Positions 7,908-14,805 of a stretch of 64,000 bases of DNA are shown in pieces. Below the pieces are notes generated by a model that was not told the DNA's origin, did not search any database, and saw only the letters and a list, made by a program, of their open reading frames with translations. The stretch comes from an uncultured Candidatus Saccharibacteria bacterium (lineage in GTDB: Bacteria; Patescibacteriota; Dojkabacteria; SC72), in contig CAZLLO010000002.1 in assembly GCA_964560525.1 (NCBI GenBank), positions 18,221 to 82,220 of the forward strand. The letters are read 5' to 3'. A program made the translations under genes and the position numbers. The number at the start of each line of letters is the position of its first letter. The first letter of the stretch is position 1.

Positions 7908-8540
7908 ATGCTTCCAAGAGAAAAATATTTAGAAAGGGGTATAGATAGCCTCAGTGATATGGAGTTAATAGCCATAATTATTGGTTCTGGTATTAAGGGT
8001 CATGATTTTATGTCCGTTTCCAGATCTGTGGTATATCAAATACGAAAATCTATAAAGAAGAATGGGAATGTAGATATTAAGGATATTGTTGATATTCTTG
8101 GTATTGGTTTAGCTACAGCTATGAAGATTCTCTCTGGTATTGAATTGGGTAGGAGGTTGTATGACCTAGGTAACAAGGAGAAGATTTCTGTTAGAAATGC
8201 ACAAGAGGCTTACTATTTGTTAAAGGATATGCGAAACAAGAAACAGGAATATATTGTGGGATTGTTTCTTAATTCTAGATTTGAGTTACTAGAACAACGT
8301 ACATTGGCTATTGGTACAGTGGATGGGGCTGGGTTACTTCCGAGGGATGTTATTATTCCTGCATTAGAACTTAATGCTAGTTCTGTTATTATGGCACATA
8401 ACCATCCTTCTGGGGATTCTTTACCTAGTAATGAGGATATTGATGTTACACAGAGGGTAGGGAAAGCGTTAGATTTAGTAGGGATTAAACTACTAGATCA
8501 TATGGTTATAGGGAAGGATGATTGGAAAAGTATTTGTTAA
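7908..8540 (+). CDS. radC: RadC-family JAB/MPN domain protein
   Basis: N-terminal HhH-like region and C-terminal JAMM motif HNHPSGDSLPSNED. Confidence 0.85.
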   Translation: MLPREKYLERGIDSLSDMELIAIIIGSGIKGHDFMSVSRSVVYQIRKSIKKNGNVDIKDIVDILGIGLATAMKILSGIELGRRLYDLGNKEKISVRNAQEAYYLLKDMRNKKQEYIVGLFLNSRFELLEQRTLAIGTVDGAGLLPRDVIIPALELNASSVIMAHNHPSGDSLPSNEDIDVTQRVGKALDLVGIKLLDHMVIGKDDWKSIC

Positions 8541-8937
8541 GCGTATCTACCTTCATTTTGATTTTGTTAAAAATAGTTTCTACAGCAAAATCGAAAGGTA
8601 TAAAAACATCTTGGATATTCCAGATTTCATAATTTTTACCATTGTATCCCAGGGTTTTAGTGCAATACAGAAATTGCTTCTTGGTCATGAATATTATCAA
8701 ATCCTGTTCATCGAGGATCTCTTTTGTAGTTAAAGTCCAAATCTTGGAGGCATATTTCAATAGATCATTTTTAAGAAGAATCTTTTCTGTATATCTACAT
8801 ATTGGACCATCTAAATTTCTTGAAGCTTCAATACCACTTGAACTTACGTTGTTCCCTTTAACATCTTTTGATATTAAATATGCTTCTGCTAAACGACTTC
8901 TGAATGTATTCCCATTACAAACGAAATGAATTTTCAT
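8506..8937 (-). CDS. Low-molecular-weight protein tyrosine phosphatase / ArsC-like
   Basis: N-terminal P-loop VCNGNTFRS (C-x5-R-S) of LMW-PTPs, in a 143-aa protein. Its 3' end overlaps radC convergently by about 35 nt. Confidence 0.7.
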   Translation of the reverse strand: MKIHFVCNGNTFRSRLAEAYLISKDVKGNNVSSSGIEASRNLDGPICRYTEKILLKNDLLKYASKIWTLTTKEILDEQDLIIFMTKKQFLYCTKTLGYNGKNYEIWNIQDVFIPFDFAVETIFNKIKMKVDTLNKYFSNHPSL

Positions 8938-8961: not shown

Positions 8962-9303
8962 ATGATTGGAAAAGTATATTATGATAAACTTGATATAGTA
9001 ATGCCAAAGAAATTTGAAAGAAAAATAGAAGACTTTGAATGTGAAAACTGTCATACAAAAGTAAAAGGAAATGGATATACAGACCATTGTCCCAATTGCT
9101 TGTACTCCAAACACGTAGATATTAATCCAGGAGATAGAAAATCTCCTTGTAAGGGCTCAATGATACCAATAGCAGTAGAAGTTAAAAGAGATGGTTACAA
9201 AATACATTACAAATGTAAGAAATGTGGATATATACATAGAGTTAAGTCAGTACAAGAGGATAACTTTGATAGAATATTGGAATTAGTAAAGAAGCCATTT
9301 TAA
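8962..9303 (+). CDS. RNHCP-like zinc-ribbon protein
   Basis: Two Cys pairs (CENCH...DHCPNC and CKKCGY) and a TDHCPNC motif resembling the RNHCP domain signature. This is a 113-aa protein at the start of the AT-rich island. Confidence 0.35.
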   Translation: MIGKVYYDKLDIVMPKKFERKIEDFECENCHTKVKGNGYTDHCPNCLYSKHVDINPGDRKSPCKGSMIPIAVEVKRDGYKIHYKCKKCGYIHRVKSVQEDNFDRILELVKKPF

Positions 9304-9368
9304 AAGTATTTACAGTGACGTAGAGTGCTGTTATAATTTGATGCAATAAGTTAATTATTGCACCCAAA

Positions 9369-10178
9369 TTGATTCTCTCCCTCAAAAAAAATATTTCAGA
9401 ACCCGGTTGGGAATACTTGTATAACCCTCATGTACTTTCTGTTTTTGCAGAATATATGAAAGATCCTACATCAATATCTTTATGGGGTATTACAGGAGAT
9501 TTAGATAATTTAGGTGTTTTTGTTGCGGAAAATGGTAGAGCAAAAGCAGAGAATTTAGTAGATTTATACAATCAGGTAACTAGGAATTATATTAGCAATT
9601 GGTATCGTGAAAACACTAACGATGTACAAGCAGTCTGTTTTCTACCTTGTGGTGAAGAAGTTTTAATTCTTGGAACGACAAAAAATACAAATGTTGTTAC
9701 AAAACTTTTTTCCGAAATCAAAGCAGCAATAAAAGAAAAGATTAATGAATATGATTTCATTGAAGTTGGTGGTACAGGTGCAAGTTTTGGATGCTCAATT
9801 TTGCAAGAAAATTCTACGGATACTCTGATATCTCAGTTGATAAAGGATTATAAAAAAACCAGTGATGACGAGATTATCTACCCACAATATTTAAAAATAA
9901 TTGAACGAATACGAACAATATTAGCGATAGAACTAGATAAGTCCAAATTTAATGATATCTTAGATGGCCAGTATCCAATTCAGATGAGGCAACTTGTATT
10001 ATCGAGAATGTTGTTATACAAATTATCTACGAAGGAACTCATTGCTTCGATGAACAAGTTTGATCCAGAGTGTTTGAAATTAATCTTGAATAGTTTGGGA
10101 GAATCATATGGAATGAATTATGAGAAATCCGCATTTATAGATAACCTTTTGAAAGAAAATGAATCAAATAAAAAATAG
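9369..10178 (+). CDS. Standalone divergent GGDEF-like (palm-domain) nucleotidyl cyclase
   Basis: GDLDNLGVFVAENGRAKAENLV matches the GGDEF block DxDxFKxxNDxxGHxxGDxxL. It is followed about 50 aa later by a PCGEEV (GGEEF-like) motif, then ILGTTKN...KLFSEIKAAIKEKI...EVGGTGAS, matching the post-GGDEF helix and loop. There is no sensory or TM domain; the alpha-helical C-terminal region is about 120 aa. Confidence 0.55.
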   Translation: MILSLKKNISEPGWEYLYNPHVLSVFAEYMKDPTSISLWGITGDLDNLGVFVAENGRAKAENLVDLYNQVTRNYISNWYRENTNDVQAVCFLPCGEEVLILGTTKNTNVVTKLFSEIKAAIKEKINEYDFIEVGGTGASFGCSILQENSTDTLISQLIKDYKKTSDDEIIYPQYLKIIERIRTILAIELDKSKFNDILDGQYPIQMRQLVLSRMLLYKLSTKELIASMNKFDPECLKLILNSLGESYGMNYEKSAFIDNLLKENESNKK

Positions 10179-10767
10179 ACAGACAATTCTGATAGGTGGT
10201 GGCCAGGTTTGGAAAAATGAGACTGTTCCAATAGACGAATATATTGTAAAGCTGGCCAAAGAAGATACCCAATCACCCCAATTATTATTGATTCCAACAT
10301 CATCCAATGACAGAGAAGATTACATACAGGCTGTTAAAAAGATTTATGAATCCTTAGGTTGTGAAGTGAATGTGCTAAGGTTCTTACATAATAAATATAC
10401 AAAGGAAAATGTTAGGGCAGAAATACAAAATTCTTCGATAATATATTTAGGATCTGGAGATCCAGCTATCCTCGAGAATGTATTGTCAGGAATGGATTTA
10501 AAGGAAACCTTTTTAGAGTGCCTTAACAAGTATTCAAAAATATTAGTTGGTTCAAGTGCAGGAGCTGCACTATTGTCGGAAAACTATATTGATGTCCTTT
10601 CCGATGATTTGAAACTCCAGAAAGGTTGGGGAATTATACCCCAAATAACCGTTGTACCGCATTATTCTGATAAGCTAAACATGGGAGATGAGGGCTTCCT
10701 TTTGCTTAGAGATTTGGAGATAGCACATTTTGATTTAGATAAACTTTGTAGAAAAATTCAATTTTAG
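10159..10767 (+). CDS. Peptidase S51 family (dipeptidase E / cyanophycinase-like)
   Basis: IIYLGSGDPAIL and the nucleophile elbow VGSSAGAALLSE (GxSAG) match PepE. The start overlaps the upstream gene by 20 nt. Confidence 0.7.
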   Translation: MNQIKNRQTILIGGGQVWKNETVPIDEYIVKLAKEDTQSPQLLLIPTSSNDREDYIQAVKKIYESLGCEVNVLRFLHNKYTKENVRAEIQNSSIIYLGSGDPAILENVLSGMDLKETFLECLNKYSKILVGSSAGAALLSENYIDVLSDDLKLQKGWGIIPQITVVPHYSDKLNMGDEGFLLLRDLEIAHFDLDKLCRKIQF

Positions 10768-10768
10768 A

Positions 10769-11842
10769 GTGATAGACAAATCAGAATCGATAAAAAGTGG
10801 ATCTGAGGTTTCTATTGTTAATCCAGTATCTGTCCAGCCAGAGAGATTTCATGCGAATGCAGAAGTTACAGATTATCTTGAAAATATAGGTTTCAAAGTA
10901 ACAGATTATACAGCTCTACAGGGGGACGATTTTGAGAGAGTTGATAGGTTTAATTCTGCGGTTGCTTCTGGGGCAAAGGCTTTATTCCCTGTCACAGGAA
11001 ATAACTTTGGAGAAAATCTGATAGATAAAATTGATTACGAAAAAATAAAGGAGTTGAAACCAATGTTTACAACATTTAGTGCAGCTTCTACCTTTCAATT
11101 AGCAATACAATCTCAGTCAGAGCTGGAAACATTTTATGGCCCACACATCTCCTTTATTCAATCTAAATCTAGCTATCGTGAGAATTCATATACGGTTACC
11201 TCATATTTAAATATGCTTTGTGGGACATCTGCAAGGTGGGGATTACAAGGAAAACTCTCTGGCCTTGCGTTTAGGAATAGGTTGGAAAGTGAGGGAACAG
11301 TTATGAGAAATATAATATCTAGAATAGACACTTTAGGTGATATATACAAAGGTGAACCGATACCATTTATAGGAAAAACAGAAGCATCTCAAATGTTTGT
11401 AACGGGGAAACTACTTCCAACTTTTTTGCAGGGTTTGGATGTTGCTGGAAAACTTGGAATAGAGCTAGACTTAAATAATAATATACTCCTTGTTGAATCA
11501 AATGATACCTCGTATGAGAAGGCGTTAGAGCATATGAAATCTATTAATGAAACATATGATTTGTCAAAACTTTCTGCAATCGTCTTAGCCTCTTTTATTC
11601 ATAGAAAGACGTCAGAAAAAGATTTTGGATATTCACTTTACGATAAAACCAGAGCATCAATCTTTGTTAGAGAAGTAGAGAAGATTGTAAAAAACAATAT
11701 TCCTGTCCTGTACGGTTTTCCAATTGGTCATGGAAGGTATAAATTAACCGTGCCAATAGGTATCAATGCAAAATTAGATCTTGCAACAGGCGATTTATAT
11801 TTAACAGAATCACCATATAAAGATGTCAAAAAATCAAATTAA
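10769..11842 (+). CDS. Peptidase S66 family (LD-carboxypeptidase LdcA / MccF-like)
   Basis: KPMFTTFSAASTF...ETFYGPHI aligns to the S66 nucleophile block nPKIfxGYSDiTaL...TfhGP with the Ser retained. The C-terminus YGFPIGHGRYKLTVPIGINAKLD matches the GFPxGH...LPxG...LD block with the catalytic His. The start is GTG. Confidence 0.65.
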   Translation: MIDKSESIKSGSEVSIVNPVSVQPERFHANAEVTDYLENIGFKVTDYTALQGDDFERVDRFNSAVASGAKALFPVTGNNFGENLIDKIDYEKIKELKPMFTTFSAASTFQLAIQSQSELETFYGPHISFIQSKSSYRENSYTVTSYLNMLCGTSARWGLQGKLSGLAFRNRLESEGTVMRNIISRIDTLGDIYKGEPIPFIGKTEASQMFVTGKLLPTFLQGLDVAGKLGIELDLNNNILLVESNDTSYEKALEHMKSINETYDLSKLSAIVLASFIHRKTSEKDFGYSLYDKTRASIFVREVEKIVKNNIPVLYGFPIGHGRYKLTVPIGINAKLDLATGDLYLTESPYKDVKKSN

Positions 11843-12884
11843 AGGAATTTCTCCTTATGACAATGTCGCTTTAGTTACACCAGGGGATTTATTACCACCG
11901 ATGTACAAAGAACAGAAAACAAATATAAAAAATTATCTTAAAAAGATAGGTTATACATGTAAAGACTTGACGAATTGTTATGGAGAAGATGCGGTAATTC
12001 AGAGGGCGAATAATTTGAATAATGCGTTCGAGGATAAAAGCATAAAAGCGGTATTTCCGATTTGTGGAGGTGAACGTTCAGATGAAATTGTAGATTTTTT
12101 AGATTACAGCTTAATATCTCAAAATCCAAAGATTTTTTGTGGATATGCAGGATTATCATATTTACTTAATAAAATAGCTTTTAATGCAAGGATAACAACT
12201 TTCTATGGGCCTCATTTAAATTTAATAAATGATGGAGCTACAAAAAGAGAAACCAATTTTACTATTTGGAACTATTGGAAATTGTTTTCGAATGAAGAAT
12301 ATAAAGAGGATTTAGATTTTAATGTGAATGAAAATGAATATAAAATGGAAAGCAGTCTTAATGGGTTGAAAACTATCAAATATAAAAATATTTTTGCATC
12401 GGAAATATATTCAAAAAGTAGTCCTGATAATTATTTCTTCTATAATAAAAATGCCAAGGGAAAATATTTAGAAGGAACTTCGGTTGTAACCTCTCTTAAT
12501 TCATTAGAAAAGGTTTGCTCAATGTTAATAGAGAATAGAATCGAGGATTTTCTTCTATTTGTTGATTTCTTTGATACGGGTGAAAAGGATATATTAAAAG
12601 TTTTTAAGAAGATATCAAAAGTCTTAATGTTGCAGCATTGTAGTGGGATAATAATTACAAATTTAACGACACACGGAGATTTCAATATGGATCATTTTTA
12701 CACTAGAGAAGAAATTAAAAGCATAGTTGATGATATCTCCGTTTTATTCCAAGAAAAACTAAGCATCCTTTATGGTTTTCCAGTAGGGCATAGTAAATAT
12801 AAATTTGTAGTGCCAATCAATTGGAAAGTTAAAGTTAATTGTGTAAATGGGGATATAACTTTTGCAAATCCTTTTAAAATATGA
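11823..12884 (+). CDS. Peptidase S66 family paralog, predicted nucleophile Ser replaced by Ala
   Basis: NPKIFCGYAGLSYLL...TTFYGPHL aligns to PKIfxGYSDiTaL with Ser to Ala and Asp to Gly. The C-terminal YGFPVGHSKYKFVVPI block is retained. The gene overlaps the upstream S66 gene by 20 nt. Confidence 0.6.
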   Translation: MSKNQIKGISPYDNVALVTPGDLLPPMYKEQKTNIKNYLKKIGYTCKDLTNCYGEDAVIQRANNLNNAFEDKSIKAVFPICGGERSDEIVDFLDYSLISQNPKIFCGYAGLSYLLNKIAFNARITTFYGPHLNLINDGATKRETNFTIWNYWKLFSNEEYKEDLDFNVNENEYKMESSLNGLKTIKYKNIFASEIYSKSSPDNYFFYNKNAKGKYLEGTSVVTSLNSLEKVCSMLIENRIEDFLLFVDFFDTGEKDILKVFKKISKVLMLQHCSGIIITNLTTHGDFNMDHFYTREEIKSIVDDISVLFQEKLSILYGFPVGHSKYKFVVPINWKVKVNCVNGDITFANPFKI

Positions 12885-13546
12885 AAATTCTATGTAAAAG
12901 AGAAGAGATGGAAATTCTGAAAAAGAGGGGAGTGCACAGTCTTGTTCACTTCACTCCGTTATCCAATCTTCAGAGAATTCTTGTTGAAGGACTTAAACCC
13001 TTAAACTCTGCAGGAGAAGAGTTAGTATGTGCAAATCAGAGTACGCGAATCCAAGCAGATGGAGATTTAATAAGCTTCTCAATAGAATATCCTGGTTACA
13101 TGTACCTTCAAAGTCTTATAAAAAAGTGTGGGGAAATATTTGTAATACTGTATTATCCAATCGAACTTCTTGCAGGCAAGAAAGTTTTCATATATAAAAG
13201 CAATCCGGCTATTCCTCGTTGGGGAGAAGCAGAAACTTTTGAGGATTTGTTTTTCGAAGAATTTAGATATAAGAAATTACCCTCCTATTACCCAAGTGAT
13301 CCAAGAGCCGAGATTCGTATGCAGGGATGTATCAATAGTTCTCAAATTCAAAAAATTGTGTTTCCTTCTGTGTTGAAGGAAGACATTCCCCAAATTCAAT
13401 CTCTTTTTCCCGATATAAAAATTTTAATAGATGACAATGTATTTGAACCAAGAATAGATTCCGATTACTGGACGAGTATCCGTACCCAGGGTTTAGATAT
13501 TTGCCCTTTAATATCGGAGACTTGTCCTTCGAAGGCGGTTTCATAA
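12881..13546 (+). CDS. DUF4433 / DarT-like ADP-ribosyltransferase-fold protein
   Basis: The N-terminal LVHFTPLSNLQRILVEGLKP matches the DarT/DUF4433 signature (hyHfTxxxNLxsILxxGL). The protein is about 220 aa, as DarT is. The 4-nt ATGA start overlaps the upstream gene. No adjacent macrodomain (DarG) gene. Confidence 0.55.
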   Translation: MKILCKREEMEILKKRGVHSLVHFTPLSNLQRILVEGLKPLNSAGEELVCANQSTRIQADGDLISFSIEYPGYMYLQSLIKKCGEIFVILYYPIELLAGKKVFIYKSNPAIPRWGEAETFEDLFFEEFRYKKLPSYYPSDPRAEIRMQGCINSSQIQKIVFPSVLKEDIPQIQSLFPDIKILIDDNVFEPRIDSDYWTSIRTQGLDICPLISETCPSKAVS

Positions 13547-13674: not shown

Positions 13675-14805
13675 ATGGAAAAAACAAAAGAAGTCTTAAC
13701 AGAGACAAAGACTCAAAACAAAGTCTCTAACGTAAAACTCCCAGAAATAATAGATCTACTAAAAGCAGGCTGTCATTTTGGACACAAGAAAAGTGCTTGG
13801 AATCCAAGAATGAAACAGTACATATATGAAGAGAGAAATGGTATTCATATCATCGACTTAGTAAAAACTCAAGAACTCATAAAGACAACCGTAGATGCAT
13901 TAGCAAACCTCTCTGACAAAGGAAACATCCTCATCGTTGGTACAAAAGGACAAGCAGCATCAATAGTTGAAAAAGTAGCAACCGAAAACGGTGCTTTCTA
14001 TGTAAACAAAAGATGGCCAGGTGGACTCTTCACAAACTTTGAAGTAGTAAGAAGAAGTATTCTTTCTTTAACAAAAATGGAAGAGAGTTTAGCAAAAGGT
14101 GGAGAAGATTTGGTTAAAAAAGAAGAACTATTAATGCAAAGAGAAGTTGTAAAATTGGAAAGAATCTACAAAGGTATTAAGTTCATGGATAAACTTCCAG
14201 AAGCAGTAATCATCGTAGATACAAAAGTTGAGAAATTAGCAATCAAAGAAGCAAGAATTGCAGGTATTCCAATCATAGGATTAGTAGATACAAACTGTAA
14301 TCCAGATTTAGTAGACTACCCAATCCCAGCAAATGATGACTCTCTAAAGAGTATCTCATTGCTCTTGGATATCTTAGGAAAAGTAGTTGGCGAATCTAAG
14401 AGATCTCAATCAATCATAGCTTTGAGAAATAGCCAGAAAGCAACCTTAGAACTTCTAAATAGACAGTTCTTGGAGCAAAAGGAAAGACAAGCTAAGATGG
14501 AAGCAGAAGACAGAGAAAGAATGAAGGCATTAAGAGAAGGAAAAGTAGCTGAGTCTAAGGGAACTGTAGTAAGAGTTGTTAAAAAAGATATCAGTGCAGA
14601 AATAGAAGCAGCAGAAGAAGCAAAAAAGATCTCTGATTCTAAGAGCATTGAAGACCTAGGACTTTCTGCAAGAATAGTAAAAGCACTTGAAGAGAACAAC
14701 ATTAAAAATGTAAGTGATCTCTCAGGTAAAACAAAAGAAGATTTAATGGAAATTAAAGGAGTAGGAGAGAAAGCTGCTTTGGATATTTTGAAATCTCTTA
14801 AATAA
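13675..14805 (+). CDS. rpsB: 30S ribosomal protein S2 with C-terminal (HhH)2-like extension
   Basis: S2 core (LLKAGCHFGHKKSAWNPRM...IHIIDL...). It is extended to 376 aa with a coiled-coil linker and a C-terminal IEDLGLSARIVKALEENNIKNVSDLSGKTKEDLMEIKGVGEKAALDIL resembling the RNAP alpha-CTD helix-hairpin-helix. Confidence 0.9.
   Translation: MEKTKEVLTETKTQNKVSNVKLPEIIDLLKAGCHFGHKKSAWNPRMKQYIYEERNGIHIIDLVKTQELIKTTVDALANLSDKGNILIVGTKGQAASIVEKVATENGAFYVNKRWPGGLFTNFEVVRRSILSLTKMEESLAKGGEDLVKKEELLMQREVVKLERIYKGIKFMDKLPEAVIIVDTKVEKLAIKEARIAGIPIIGLVDTNCNPDLVDYPIPANDDSLKSISLLLDILGKVVGESKRSQSIIALRNSQKATLELLNRQFLEQKERQAKMEAEDRERMKALREGKVAESKGTVVRVVKKDISAEIEAAEEAKKISDSKSIEDLGLSARIVKALEENNIKNVSDLSGKTKEDLMEIKGVGEKAALDILKSLK

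Follow-up and report, generated by a model that had tools for sequence, protein, structure and literature searches.

The described systems closest to the protein studied here are the GGDEF diguanylate cyclases, the Cas10 proteins and the stand-alone Cas10-like synthases (mCpol) of Panoptes systems, the last characterised only in 2025. Stand-alone mCpol makes c-di-AMP or cA3, and these products are read by 2TM-beta or CARF-TM effectors (PMC12657230, PMC13577387). The 64,000-nucleotide stretch of DNA analysed here (the window; contig CAZLLO010000002.1 of assembly GCA_964560525.1, from an uncultured Candidatus Saccharibacteria bacterium) encodes a palm-domain protein that a first-pass annotation had described as a standalone, sensor-less GGDEF-like enzyme. 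The reading frame and the quoted motif strings are present exactly as described, DLDNLGVFVAENGRAKAENLV at residues 44-64 and PCGEEV at residues 93-98. Features of the locus are collected in Table 1.

Table 1. Features of the palm gene and its operon (positions in the window; residues refer to the palm ORF)
Feature	Position	Strand	Description
Putative operon promoter	9309..9337	+	TTTACA-17 nt-TATAAT, upstream TG, 11/12 matches, ~30 nt 5' of palm ORF
Palm ORF	9369..10178	+	269 aa, TTG start; predicted GGDEF/Cas10-fold palm and family-specific helical domain; unannotated family
Palm domain	9477..9806	+	Residues 37-146
Palm secondary structure			Beta1 37-46, alpha 48-55, alpha 57-81, hairpin 86-94 and 97-104, alpha 107-126, beta 137-144
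Beta1 motif	9492..9515	+	T42-G-D44-L-D46-N-L48-G49; predicted metal and phosphate site
Hairpin motif	9645..9659	+	P93-C94-G95-E96-E97; counterpart of GG[DE]EF or GGDD
C-terminal helical domain	9810..10172	+	Residues 148-268; invariant R182, D190, K193, F194, R207, K218
Peptidase_S51	10159..10767	+	Cyanophycinase/PepE-like; 20-nt overlap with palm gene
Peptidase_S66 (S66a)	10769..11842	+	LdcA/MccF family; Ser, Glu, His kept
Peptidase_S66 (S66b)	11823..12884	+	Nucleophile Ser replaced by Ala (CGYAGLS)
DarT-like protein	12881..13546	+	Divergent ssDNA ADP-ribosyltransferase; last operon gene, 4-nt overlap

Predicted structure and family of the palm protein

The AF2 model of the palm ORF is confident (pLDDT 91.6, pTM 0.86) and supports its assignment to the palm-domain proteins with the GGDEF/Cas10/class III cyclase fold. 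The predicted beta-alpha-alpha-beta-beta-alpha-beta core is superposable on GGDEF domains, which are its best structural matches, and is also recognisable as a Cas10-like palm. Cyclase-type palms score above polymerases, and Foldseek searches against Cas10 Palm2 gave the longest alignments (E ~1.6e-3). The GGDEF-like palm proposed in the first-pass annotation is confirmed at the level of fold, with invariant metal-binding acidic residues. Only ~35 N-terminal residues precede the palm in the model, and residues 148-268 are all-helical, in agreement with the tail of about 120 aa that had been described. This helical domain has no specific structural relative and is unlike D4, Cmr5 or Csm2. PAS, GAF, REC and TM domains were likewise stated to be absent, and none was detected in Pfam, NCBIfam and PADLOC scans.

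A search of 1.84 billion proteins returned 55 homologous clusters and 91 representatives at 50% identity, nearly all of 250-280 aa. The palm family is therefore real and under selection, tiny, and not annotated before; the resemblance is beyond chance, given the motifs common to all clusters and representatives and the confident model. Residues D44, R57, G95, E96, E97, R182, D190, K193, R207 and K218 are invariant in the 81 aligned members, and on beta1 L48 is invariant together with D44, while D46 and G49 are present in 79/81. Scans of the query and of each member against Pfam, NCBIfam and PADLOC assigned no family, and phmmer and profile hmmsearch of PDB sequences found nothing. No member was found in IMG/VR viral contigs, PLSDB plasmids or GenBank phages; given this absence, and that from the PADLOC models, a defence role is not established.

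The family shares with the diguanylate cyclases PleD, DgcZ and WspR an acidic residue on beta1, a G-E-E hairpin and an S-x-G strand, spaced similarly (43 and 45 residues in PleD, 52 and 44 in the palm ORF). The metal-binding Asp of beta1 and the signature Glu are kept throughout (D44, E96 and E97 in 81/81 members). In place of the two-Gly GG[DE]EF, however, the palm ORF has C-G-E-E-V. The non-canonical signature noted in the first pass extends to the family, in which the first Gly is usually Ser (position 94: S59/A12/C5/G4) and position 98 is V/I rather than F. Beta1 reads D-x-D-x-L-G, unlike PleD DIDFFK (D-I-D-x-F-K); the RxxD I-site is absent (residues 85-88 are DVQA), a helical bundle replaces the C-terminal part of the domain, and there is no input domain. 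In an ungapped register drawn from motif spacing and predicted helices, which no significant alignment reproduced, position 52 corresponds to PleD N335 and position 61 to PleD D344. Position 52 is V77/I3/S1 and never Asn, which extends to all 81 members the replacement of the guanine-reading Asn reported for the single protein; position 61 is E70/Q11, and the guanine-reading pair appears not to be kept. A block-for-block match to the GGDEF core had been claimed: motif spacing and predicted secondary structure agree with it, whereas no alignment tool returned that register significantly.

Profile searches gave a similar picture. PF00990 did not match the palm ORF at E<=1 or reach its gathering score, and it matched a single one of the 81 members (E 0.08), the other 80 failing at E<=1. 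A PleD-family HMM missed the palm ORF, yet scored a control GGDEF domain at 1.4e-16. The profile-profile comparison with GGDEF and Cas10 that had been suggested as a check turned out negative, with hhalign probabilities of <1% for the family profile against PleD, SiaD, Thermus Csm1, Cmr2 and a PleD-type GGDEF profile, the latter a shallow one (122 sequences) since its source search gave close PleD orthologues only. A palm-only family HMM gave uninformative scores against PleD, SiaD, Csm1 and Cmr2, negative for Thermus Csm1 and Cmr2. Judged by its sequence, then, the palm ORF fails the definition of a diguanylate cyclase, and canonical guanine recognition is probably absent; both statements are supported.

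That the protein is nonetheless an ordinary, divergent diguanylate cyclase making c-di-GMP is highly improbable. The failure of PF00990 for 80/81 members and of the PleD-family HMM, the missing Asn, Gln at position 61 in 11 members, the altered beta1, the helical domain in place of C-terminal GGDEF elements, and peptidase and CARF partners instead of EAL, HD-GYP or PilZ ones all speak against it. It would explain why GGDEF domains are the best structural matches and why G-E-E is retained, as in GGEEF enzymes, and the Glu at position 61 of 70/81 members brings a carboxylate by which guanine N1/N2 could still be recognised. On the contig of one relative, a canonical PF00990 GGDEF gene lies directly beside the module described below. 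C-di-GMP may therefore exist in these lineages, and the earlier premise that a CPR-type genome should not use c-di-GMP signalling is weakened.

The operon and its peptidase partners

The most informative feature of the locus, missed by the first-pass annotation, is the operon: the palm gene heads five genes, followed by S51, S66a, S66b and DarT-like genes. The word standalone is thus valid for domain architecture only. The putative promoter is the best sigma-70-like match in the region, from a consensus scan in which the total number of sites was not above that of shuffled sequences. RNHCP and LMW-phosphatase genes lie upstream and are not counted in the module, because the promoter-like site lies between RNHCP and the palm ORF and P0002-type loci differ upstream, with no called gene or a different one. 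The same two genes are found upstream in L059, a locus of an identical or almost identical organism.

The S51 protein of the window keeps the GSSAGA nucleophile motif and the PH motif. S66a carries a subfamily signature (GFPxGHxxYKLTxPxG) that is private to the palm partner; this S66 subfamily matches the palm family in rarity and is equidistant from LdcA and MccF, and its JGI label is LdcA. The Ser-His-Glu triad is kept in S66a and in the other aligned palm-linked S66 copies, with the exception of S66b. As the identical nucleophile loss recurs in L053 and L054, S66b is considered a conserved pseudo-peptidase. The DarT-like protein matches Escherichia coli DarT1 (8baq_A, E 2.2e-7, residues 10-178), with conserved HFTP...NL..IL..GL and DPRAEIR motifs and the catalytic-motif Glu kept.

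Among 27 non-redundant loci, an S66 gene adjoins the palm gene in 23, in three different arrangements, an S51 gene in 16 and a methyltransferase gene in 6; there are no other recurrent neighbours. Palm and S51 are naturally fused in P0057/L047 and P0093. The five-gene order with the dead S66 and DarT-like genes is kept down to 54% palm identity, and the DarT-like genes of these relatives give weak or faint matches to PF14487 (DarT). Flanking genes differ among loci, which indicates that the module moves as a unit; recurrent 4.43-kb contigs holding exactly the module had no terminal overlap in a circularity check. The module was found in 24 of ~185,000 species. ThiF, YcaO and M29 genes occur near the palm gene in some loci, ThiF and YcaO in few. 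M29 aminopeptidase or Mur-ligase genes lie near some loci, and one homologue sits inside an mraY-ftsW-murG cluster. A microcin-C-like or RiPP cluster was considered and is kept as a low-probability rival only, since the neighbouring ThiF, YcaO, M29 and methyltransferase genes vary from locus to locus.

With S66 a near-universal neighbour and S51 at times fused to the palm, a fusion that suggests coupled chemistry, the palm might instead move an NMP onto an amino acid- or peptide-type acceptor. S66 and S51 would then process, recycle or detoxify the conjugate, and the methyltransferase would decorate it. MccF, a hydrolase of aminoacyl-nucleotides, belongs to the S66 family, and the palm-linked S66 is no farther from MccF than from LdcA; a SAM-dependent methyltransferase completes the operon in the 6 loci mentioned, and ThiF, YcaO or M29 genes are nearby in some. 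Cas10 itself can join ATP to an acceptor other than an NTP, yielding SAM-AMP. This conjugating role is unlikely, however: a conserved precursor peptide, exporter or biosynthetic core is absent, ThiF and YcaO are confined to few loci, a sister clade without any peptidases keeps every invariant palm residue, and we know of no palm-fold enzyme that nucleotidylates a carboxylate or amine.

The catalytic triads kept in S66 and S51, the LdcA annotation of the S66 partner, and the M29, Mur-ligase and mraY-ftsW-murG associations would also suit a salvage pair for peptides or muropeptides (LD-carboxypeptidase and dipeptidase) in auxotrophic Patescibacteria, with the palm as its non-signalling ligand-binding or scaffold subunit. 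We regard this as distinctly unlikely. Strict invariance of two-metal acidic residues and several basic residues argues for catalysis by the palm; moreover, peptidase partners are missing in the sister clade, the window module contains both a dead S66 and a toxin-like DarT homologue, and the module is rare.

A sister clade with AAA+ partners

In the sister clade (clade II), peptidase partners are absent and all invariant palm residues are kept. A CARF(Cas_NE0113)-Sigma54 AAA+ gene directly follows the palm gene in L015, L036-L039, L041 and L043, and in L035, L044-L046, L048 and L052 the following gene encodes a Sigma54 AAA+ protein; domain scans of L046, L048 and L052 recognised nothing in its N-terminal region. 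Sigma-54 promoters were looked for near the clade II pairs, and none was found. A CARF-like N-terminus joined to a sigma-54-interaction AAA+ domain is shared with the RtcR-like CARF-NtrC AAA+ proteins encoded outside rtc operons, and the clade II partner is sometimes near restriction-modification or mobile genes (PMC4012209). The likeness is that of the partner, not of the palm family, and the window module contains no such protein. For the orphan RtcR-like CARF-AAA+ proteins, the excerpts of Makarova et al. 2014 do not name a ligand synthase (PMC4012209).

RtcR-type CARF domains are described as sensing RNA ends and not cyclic oligoadenylates (PMC4012209, PMC7790460), and DarT acts on ssDNA. 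Both would fit a palm that works on RNA or DNA ends and not on free nucleotides, as a template-independent oligonucleotide polymerase or a Thg1/primase-like enzyme. Such an activity is very unlikely, given that cyclase-type palms outscore polymerases, that fingers, thumb and nucleic-acid-binding domains are absent, and that the helical tail has no relative.

Proposed role and comparison with known systems

We favour, at a probability of roughly one half, the reading in which the palm ORF is an active nucleotidyl transferase producing a nucleotide-derived signal within a compact mobile module, and is not a canonical c-di-GMP cyclase. The enzyme would be a two-metal nucleotidyl transferase or cyclase turning NTP into a nucleotide-derived small molecule, presumably for signalling, and its private helical domain would supply invariant basic residues, probably aiding triphosphate or acceptor binding. 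In the window clade, the module pairs the palm with an S51 hydrolase, an active S66, a catalytically dead S66 and a DarT-like toxin. The dead S66 may sense the ligand or regulate the toxin, with turnover, processing or effector functions falling to the active S66 and S51. The output in the sister clade would be the sigma-54-type AAA+ ATPase, which often carries a CARF domain for nucleotide sensing at its N-terminus.

Several observations count against a signal synthase. No sequence model or profile comparison ties the palm family to a characterised synthase, a CARF domain is recognisable in only about half of the AAA+ partners in clade II, and the S66 and S51 partners carry no recognisable nucleotide-sensor domain. 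To our knowledge, peptidases are not effectors or degraders of nucleotide signals, and a synthase fused to a hydrolase, as in palm-S51, is seen more often where metabolic steps are coupled than where a signal diffuses.

A more specific proposal, and a rather improbable one, is that the palm makes a new class of signal by coupling a nucleotide with an amino acid or a short peptide. Degradation of this signal by the active S66 and S51 would form an off-switch analogous to ring nucleases, and the dead S66 would bind the signal uncleaved and thereby gate the DarT-like DNA ADP-ribosylating toxin. If true, Patescibacteria would possess a conflict or stress module complete in itself, read out in the sister clade by CARF-AAA+ proteins.

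With DarTG, a toxin-antitoxin and anti-phage system, the window operon shares a terminal DarT-like ADP-ribosyltransferase that keeps its catalytic-motif Glu. It differs in that the DarG macrodomain antitoxin is absent, a dead S66 precedes the DarT-like gene, and the latter is co-oriented with palm, S51 and S66 genes. We know of no other nucleotide signalling system with such partner sets, namely S66/S51 peptidases, a pseudo-peptidase, a DarG-less DarT-like protein, or a CARF-sigma54 AAA+ protein.

The first-pass view that the protein is closer to mCpol and Cas10 is supported in part, by the Cas10-type beta1 motif, by a Cas10 family match in a few members and by the CARF operon of the sister clade. 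Cas10-Cmr2_palm2 (PF22335), matched by 3/81 members at E ~1e-3, below cutoff, is the sole Pfam family with matches from more than one member. At motif level only, DLDNLG of the palm ORF resembles DADRMG/DGDRMG in both Thermus Cas10 proteins, and CGEEVLILG resembles GGDDLFLLG, with the G-(D/E)-(D/E)-x4-G spacing of Thermus thermophilus Csm1. The HD, Palm1, Zn-finger and D4 domains of Cas10 are, however, absent, and neither cas genes nor a CRISPR array lie near the palm ORF.

Compared with mCpol, a single palm of ~125 aa (120-130) with a GGDD site, the palm family has (S/C)GEE, and the 269-aa palm ORF includes a conserved 120-aa helical domain; a sequence-level match between the two is absent, as are 2TM-beta and CARF-TM (or Csx1 fusion) partners at the window locus and in the sister clade. 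Common to both are a stand-alone, sensor-less Cas10/GGDEF-type palm, a compact operon with an output protein and, in the sister clade, a CARF-domain partner, as in type II Panoptes. For the orphan RtcR-like CARF-AAA+ proteins noted in 2014, the palm family offers a candidate producer of the ligand, and the module could be an entry point to small-molecule signalling or conflict systems, which are almost entirely unexplored in ultra-small Patescibacteria. Under the favoured reading, the palm family would be a second minimal palm synthase family, unrelated in sequence to mCpol.

A conserved palm family with a cyclase-type predicted fold

The palm gene, lying exactly where the first-pass annotation had placed it, is real and conserved. 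A search of 5.8 billion proteins returned 55 homologous clusters of about 250–280 aa, all 'hypothetical', one named as from Candidatus Daviesbacteria and none carrying a precomputed Pfam domain. When 1.84 billion representatives were searched exhaustively with a profile, 91 proteins passed E≤1e-3, none of them a canonical GGDEF or Cas10 protein; the sole non-family match was a TPR-repeat protein (P0140). Pfam, NCBIfam and PADLOC scans of the ORF gave no domain of any kind, GGDEF included, at E≤1 beyond noise, in agreement with the earlier view that PAS, GAF, REC and transmembrane input domains are lacking. In the representative P0066 (314 aa), a TACO1/YebC N-terminal domain precedes the C-terminal two-thirds of a palm family protein, a combination that probably arose as a chimera in gene calling or assembly.

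The AlphaFold2 model, calculated from family alignment A1, is confident (pLDDT 91.6, pTM 0.86). It comprises a short N-terminal helix, a β-strand (37–46), two helices (48–55, 57–81), a β-hairpin (86–94, 97–104), a helix (107–126), a β-strand (137–144) and an all-helical C-terminal region (148–268). In the combined alignment of A1 and the divergent set A3 (81 members), D44, L48, R57, V64, G95, E96 and E97 are invariant, as are R182, D190, K193, F194, R207, K218 and G248, while D46 and G49 are kept in 79.

The motifs occupy residues 44–64 (DLDNLGVFVAENGRAKAENLV) and 93–98 (PCGEEV). In an ungapped register against the actual PleD sequence, consistent with the helix boundaries of the predicted structure, D44 corresponds to D327, V52 to N335, G56-R57 to G339-H340, A60-E61 to G343-D344 and G95-E96-E97 to G369-E370-E371, PleD residues with established roles. 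Asn does not occur at position 52 in any of the 81 members, which have Val (77), Ile (3) or Ser (1) there; position 61 carries Glu (70) or Gln (11), and the first signature Gly has its counterpart in position 94, occupied by Ser (59), Ala (12), Cys (5) or Gly (4). The reported motifs, including replacement of the guanine-reading Asn by Val, are therefore valid family-wide in this ungapped register, which no alignment method applied, profile comparison included, recovered at a significant level: hhalign probabilities stayed <1% whether the target was a single sequence or a shallow GGDEF profile, and with a palm-only HMM just the GEE-to-SxG half could be aligned.

Relationship to GGDEF, Cas10 and mCpol

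The evidence for GGDEF or Cas10 affinity is split. The β1 motif D-L-D-N-L-G matches D-A-D-R-M-G / D-G-D-R-M-G of Thermus thermophilus Csm1 / Cmr2 and differs from the D-I-D-F-F-K of GGDEF, and G-E-E-x4-G matches the Csm1 G-D-D-x4-G. Cas10-Cmr2_palm2 is the sole Pfam family matching more than one member (3/81, E about 1e-3, below threshold); Pfam GGDEF matches one of the 81, at E 0.08. To this extent the proposed proximity to mCpol and Cas10 is partly supported. Our conclusion is that the family forms a lineage of its own within the palm cyclase superfamily, fitting neither PF00990, Cas10 nor mCpol. On the PF00990, residue and motif comparisons, a canonical c-di-GMP cyclase is unlikely.

The additional argument that a CPR genome would not run c-di-GMP signaling is weak. 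The 64-kb window contains no canonical GGDEF domain; on a 308-kb contig of a relative (L057; organism 32% GC), the same five-gene module has a genuine PF00990 GGDEF gene (DINDFKIINDTLGH...RYGGDEF) about 500 bp upstream in divergent orientation. PHP-like and KAP NTPase/BrxC-like genes lie downstream of that module.

The window operon and its peptidase partners

The first-pass annotation did not include the operon context. In the window, five co-directional, overlapping genes begin with the palm gene.

Coordinates of features in the window and in related loci
Feature	Location	Strand	Remarks
Phosphatase-like, low molecular weight	window 8506-8937	-	just upstream of module
RNHCP zinc-ribbon protein	window 8962-9303	+	just upstream of module
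Sigma-70-like site	window 9309-9337	+	strongest in region, directly upstream of palm ORF
Palm ORF	window 9369-10178	+	TTG start, 269 aa
Peptidase_S51	window 10159-10767	+	GSSAGA and PH kept
Peptidase_S66, first copy (S66a)	window 10769-11842	+	Ser, Glu, His kept
Peptidase_S66, second copy (S66b)	window 11823-12884	+	Ala at nucleophile position (CGYAGLS); GH..YK kept
S66 second copy, relative	L053 2561-3622		no nucleophile Ser; GH..YK kept
S66 second copy, relative	L054 2704-3735		no nucleophile Ser; GH..YK kept
Predicted DarT-like ORF	window 12881-13546	+	221 aa; match to E. coli DarT1 in PDB
Ribosomal protein S2	window 13675-14805	+	376 aa, unusual fusion
Canonical PF00990 GGDEF protein	L057 6152-7132	-	contig Ga0528475_000060; 326 aa, coiled-coil N-terminus, RYGGDEF
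Palm and CARF-sigma54 pair with neighbors	L015 913-8058		Zixibacteriota MAG JAOZPT010000072.1
Clade II pair with flanks	L052 1710-15007
M29, ThiF, YcaO region	L001 4645-12149
M29, ThiF, YcaO region	L004 953-2862, 9373-11814
Palm homolog between glycosyltransferases	L021 6665-10181		Uhrbacteria MAG

The last ORF, unannotated and without a Pfam match at E≤1, is by sequence a predicted divergent DarT-like ssDNA ADP-ribosyltransferase: residues 10–178 match E. coli DarT1 (PDB 8baq_A, E 2.2e-7), with the HFTP... and DPRAEIR motifs kept. Its gene, in the same position in relatives, shares 4 nt with the end of the S66 gene before it; the genes scanned included no DarG macrodomain gene. The closest relatives (palm identity 92% and 54%) have the identical gene order. 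The window and two relatives share the DarT-like motifs and have lost the second S66 nucleophile (Ala, Ala, Gly), and S66b is accordingly named here as a predicted, conserved pseudo-peptidase directly upstream of the DarT-like gene.

Three Logan contigs from different sequencing runs (L054–L056, about 4432–4434 bp) have a common start and ends within a few bases; each holds the five-gene module and nothing else, and its ends do not overlap, so circularity is not evident. The shared breakpoints point to flanks that vary or are repeated. The RNHCP and phosphatase-like neighbors recur in L059, whose organism is the same or nearly identical, and a promoter-like site separates the RNHCP gene from the palm ORF. 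Residues 314–376 of the S2 protein form an RNA-polymerase-alpha-CTD / helix-hairpin-helix domain (PF03118, E 4e-13).

Loci were collected by looking up exact proteins and by scanning 185,579 species genomes. The genome scan gave 24 loci, mostly in Patescibacteria MAGs, the remainder being one Zixibacteriota MAG and several labeled Alpha- or Gammaproteobacteria. All neighboring ORFs were clustered, with no families chosen beforehand. In 27 non-redundant loci, the palm gene adjoins S66 in 23 cases, S51 in 16 and a SAM-methyltransferase gene in six, with no other recurrent neighbors. Three arrangements occur: overlapping palm>S51>S66>methyltransferase; convergent palm> <S66 <S51, with a gap of 23–44 bp (mostly 33–36 bp); and overlapping palm>S66 without S51. 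Flanking genes differ and are unrelated from locus to locus. The palm-linked S66 proteins are dedicated partners: they have their own signature (GFPxGHxxYKLTxPxG), and the S66a subfamily (about 14 clusters, followed by generic LD-carboxypeptidases at 26–27% identity) matches the palm family in rarity. An unlinked S66 gene that shares the L017 contig with a palm-linked one lacks the signature.

Some loci of the window's clade (clade I) have M29 aminopeptidase, ThiF and YcaO genes close to the module, and the L004 operon runs on to weakly PRTase-like (449 aa) and kinase-like (362 aa, RIO1/TCAD9) proteins; none of these is conserved between loci. The L021 palm homolog, with no S66 or S51 neighbor, lies between murG-type GT28 and GT4 glycosyltransferase genes, with mraY and ftsW upstream (ORFs judged by eye) and a Mur-ligase-like ORF downstream.

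The sister clade and a proposed signaling role

CARF domains sense nucleotides or oligonucleotides. In the Zixibacteriota locus L015, which lacks the peptidases, the gene 23 bp after the palm gene encodes a 634-aa protein that combines a CARF domain (Cas_NE0113, E 6e-22) with a sigma-54-interaction AAA+ domain (E 5e-43). The pairing recurs among divergent representatives and in scanned metagenomes: a CARF-Sigma54 AAA+ gene comes directly after or overlaps the palm gene in L036–L039, L041 and L043, and the gene for a similar-size Sigma54 AAA+ protein comes after it in L035, L044–L046, L048 and L052; the N-terminal ~285 residues were unrecognised in domain scans of L046, L048 and L052. This sister clade (clade II) keeps every palm invariant residue.

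The L015 pair adjoins XRE-type HTH and DUF5906 primase/helicase-like genes, which suggests a mobile element or island. The L052 pair is flanked by phiEco32-like COOH-NH2 ligase, class II glutamine amidotransferase and radical-SAM SPL-like genes and, as judged by eye, an ORF with an HsdM-like N-terminus and an integrase-like ORF; the surroundings look like an island.

The best explanation, at roughly even odds, is that the palm ORF would encode an active synthase that uses NTP to make a nucleotide-derived signal, given the invariant two-metal-type acidic residues, the modeled cyclase-type fold and the CARF partner in the sister clade. The product may instead be an aminoacyl- or peptidyl-nucleotide, an alternative kept alive by natural palm-S51 fusions (representatives P0057 and P0093; locus L047) and the MccF relationship of S66. 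Under the signal-synthase reading, the dead S66 copy in the window's clade could be a ligand-binding regulator of the DarT-like toxin, and the active S66 and S51 might serve in turnover or processing, or as effectors. A role in defence is made plausible by the toxin, the mobile, patchy distribution, the BrxC/KAP NTPase neighbor in L057 and the restriction-modification and integrase-like neighbors in L052 (judged by eye); absence of the family from PADLOC, viral contigs, and plasmid and phage collections counts against it.

Within incomplete literature coverage, no link was found between a GGDEF/Cas10-like protein and S66/S51 peptidases or orphan CARF-sigma54 proteins. In 2014, RtcR-like CARF-NtrC AAA+ proteins with no link to rtc operons were described as probable sensors of phage-related nucleotides, the relevant passages naming no ligand synthase (PMC4012209). 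A precedent for a stand-alone Cas10-like synthase is mCpol, which is read by 2TM-beta or CARF-TM effectors (PMC12657230, PMC13577387); clade II has a CARF-Sigma54 AAA+ partner instead. The palm family would represent a minimal stand-alone palm synthase module with a new architecture and new partners.
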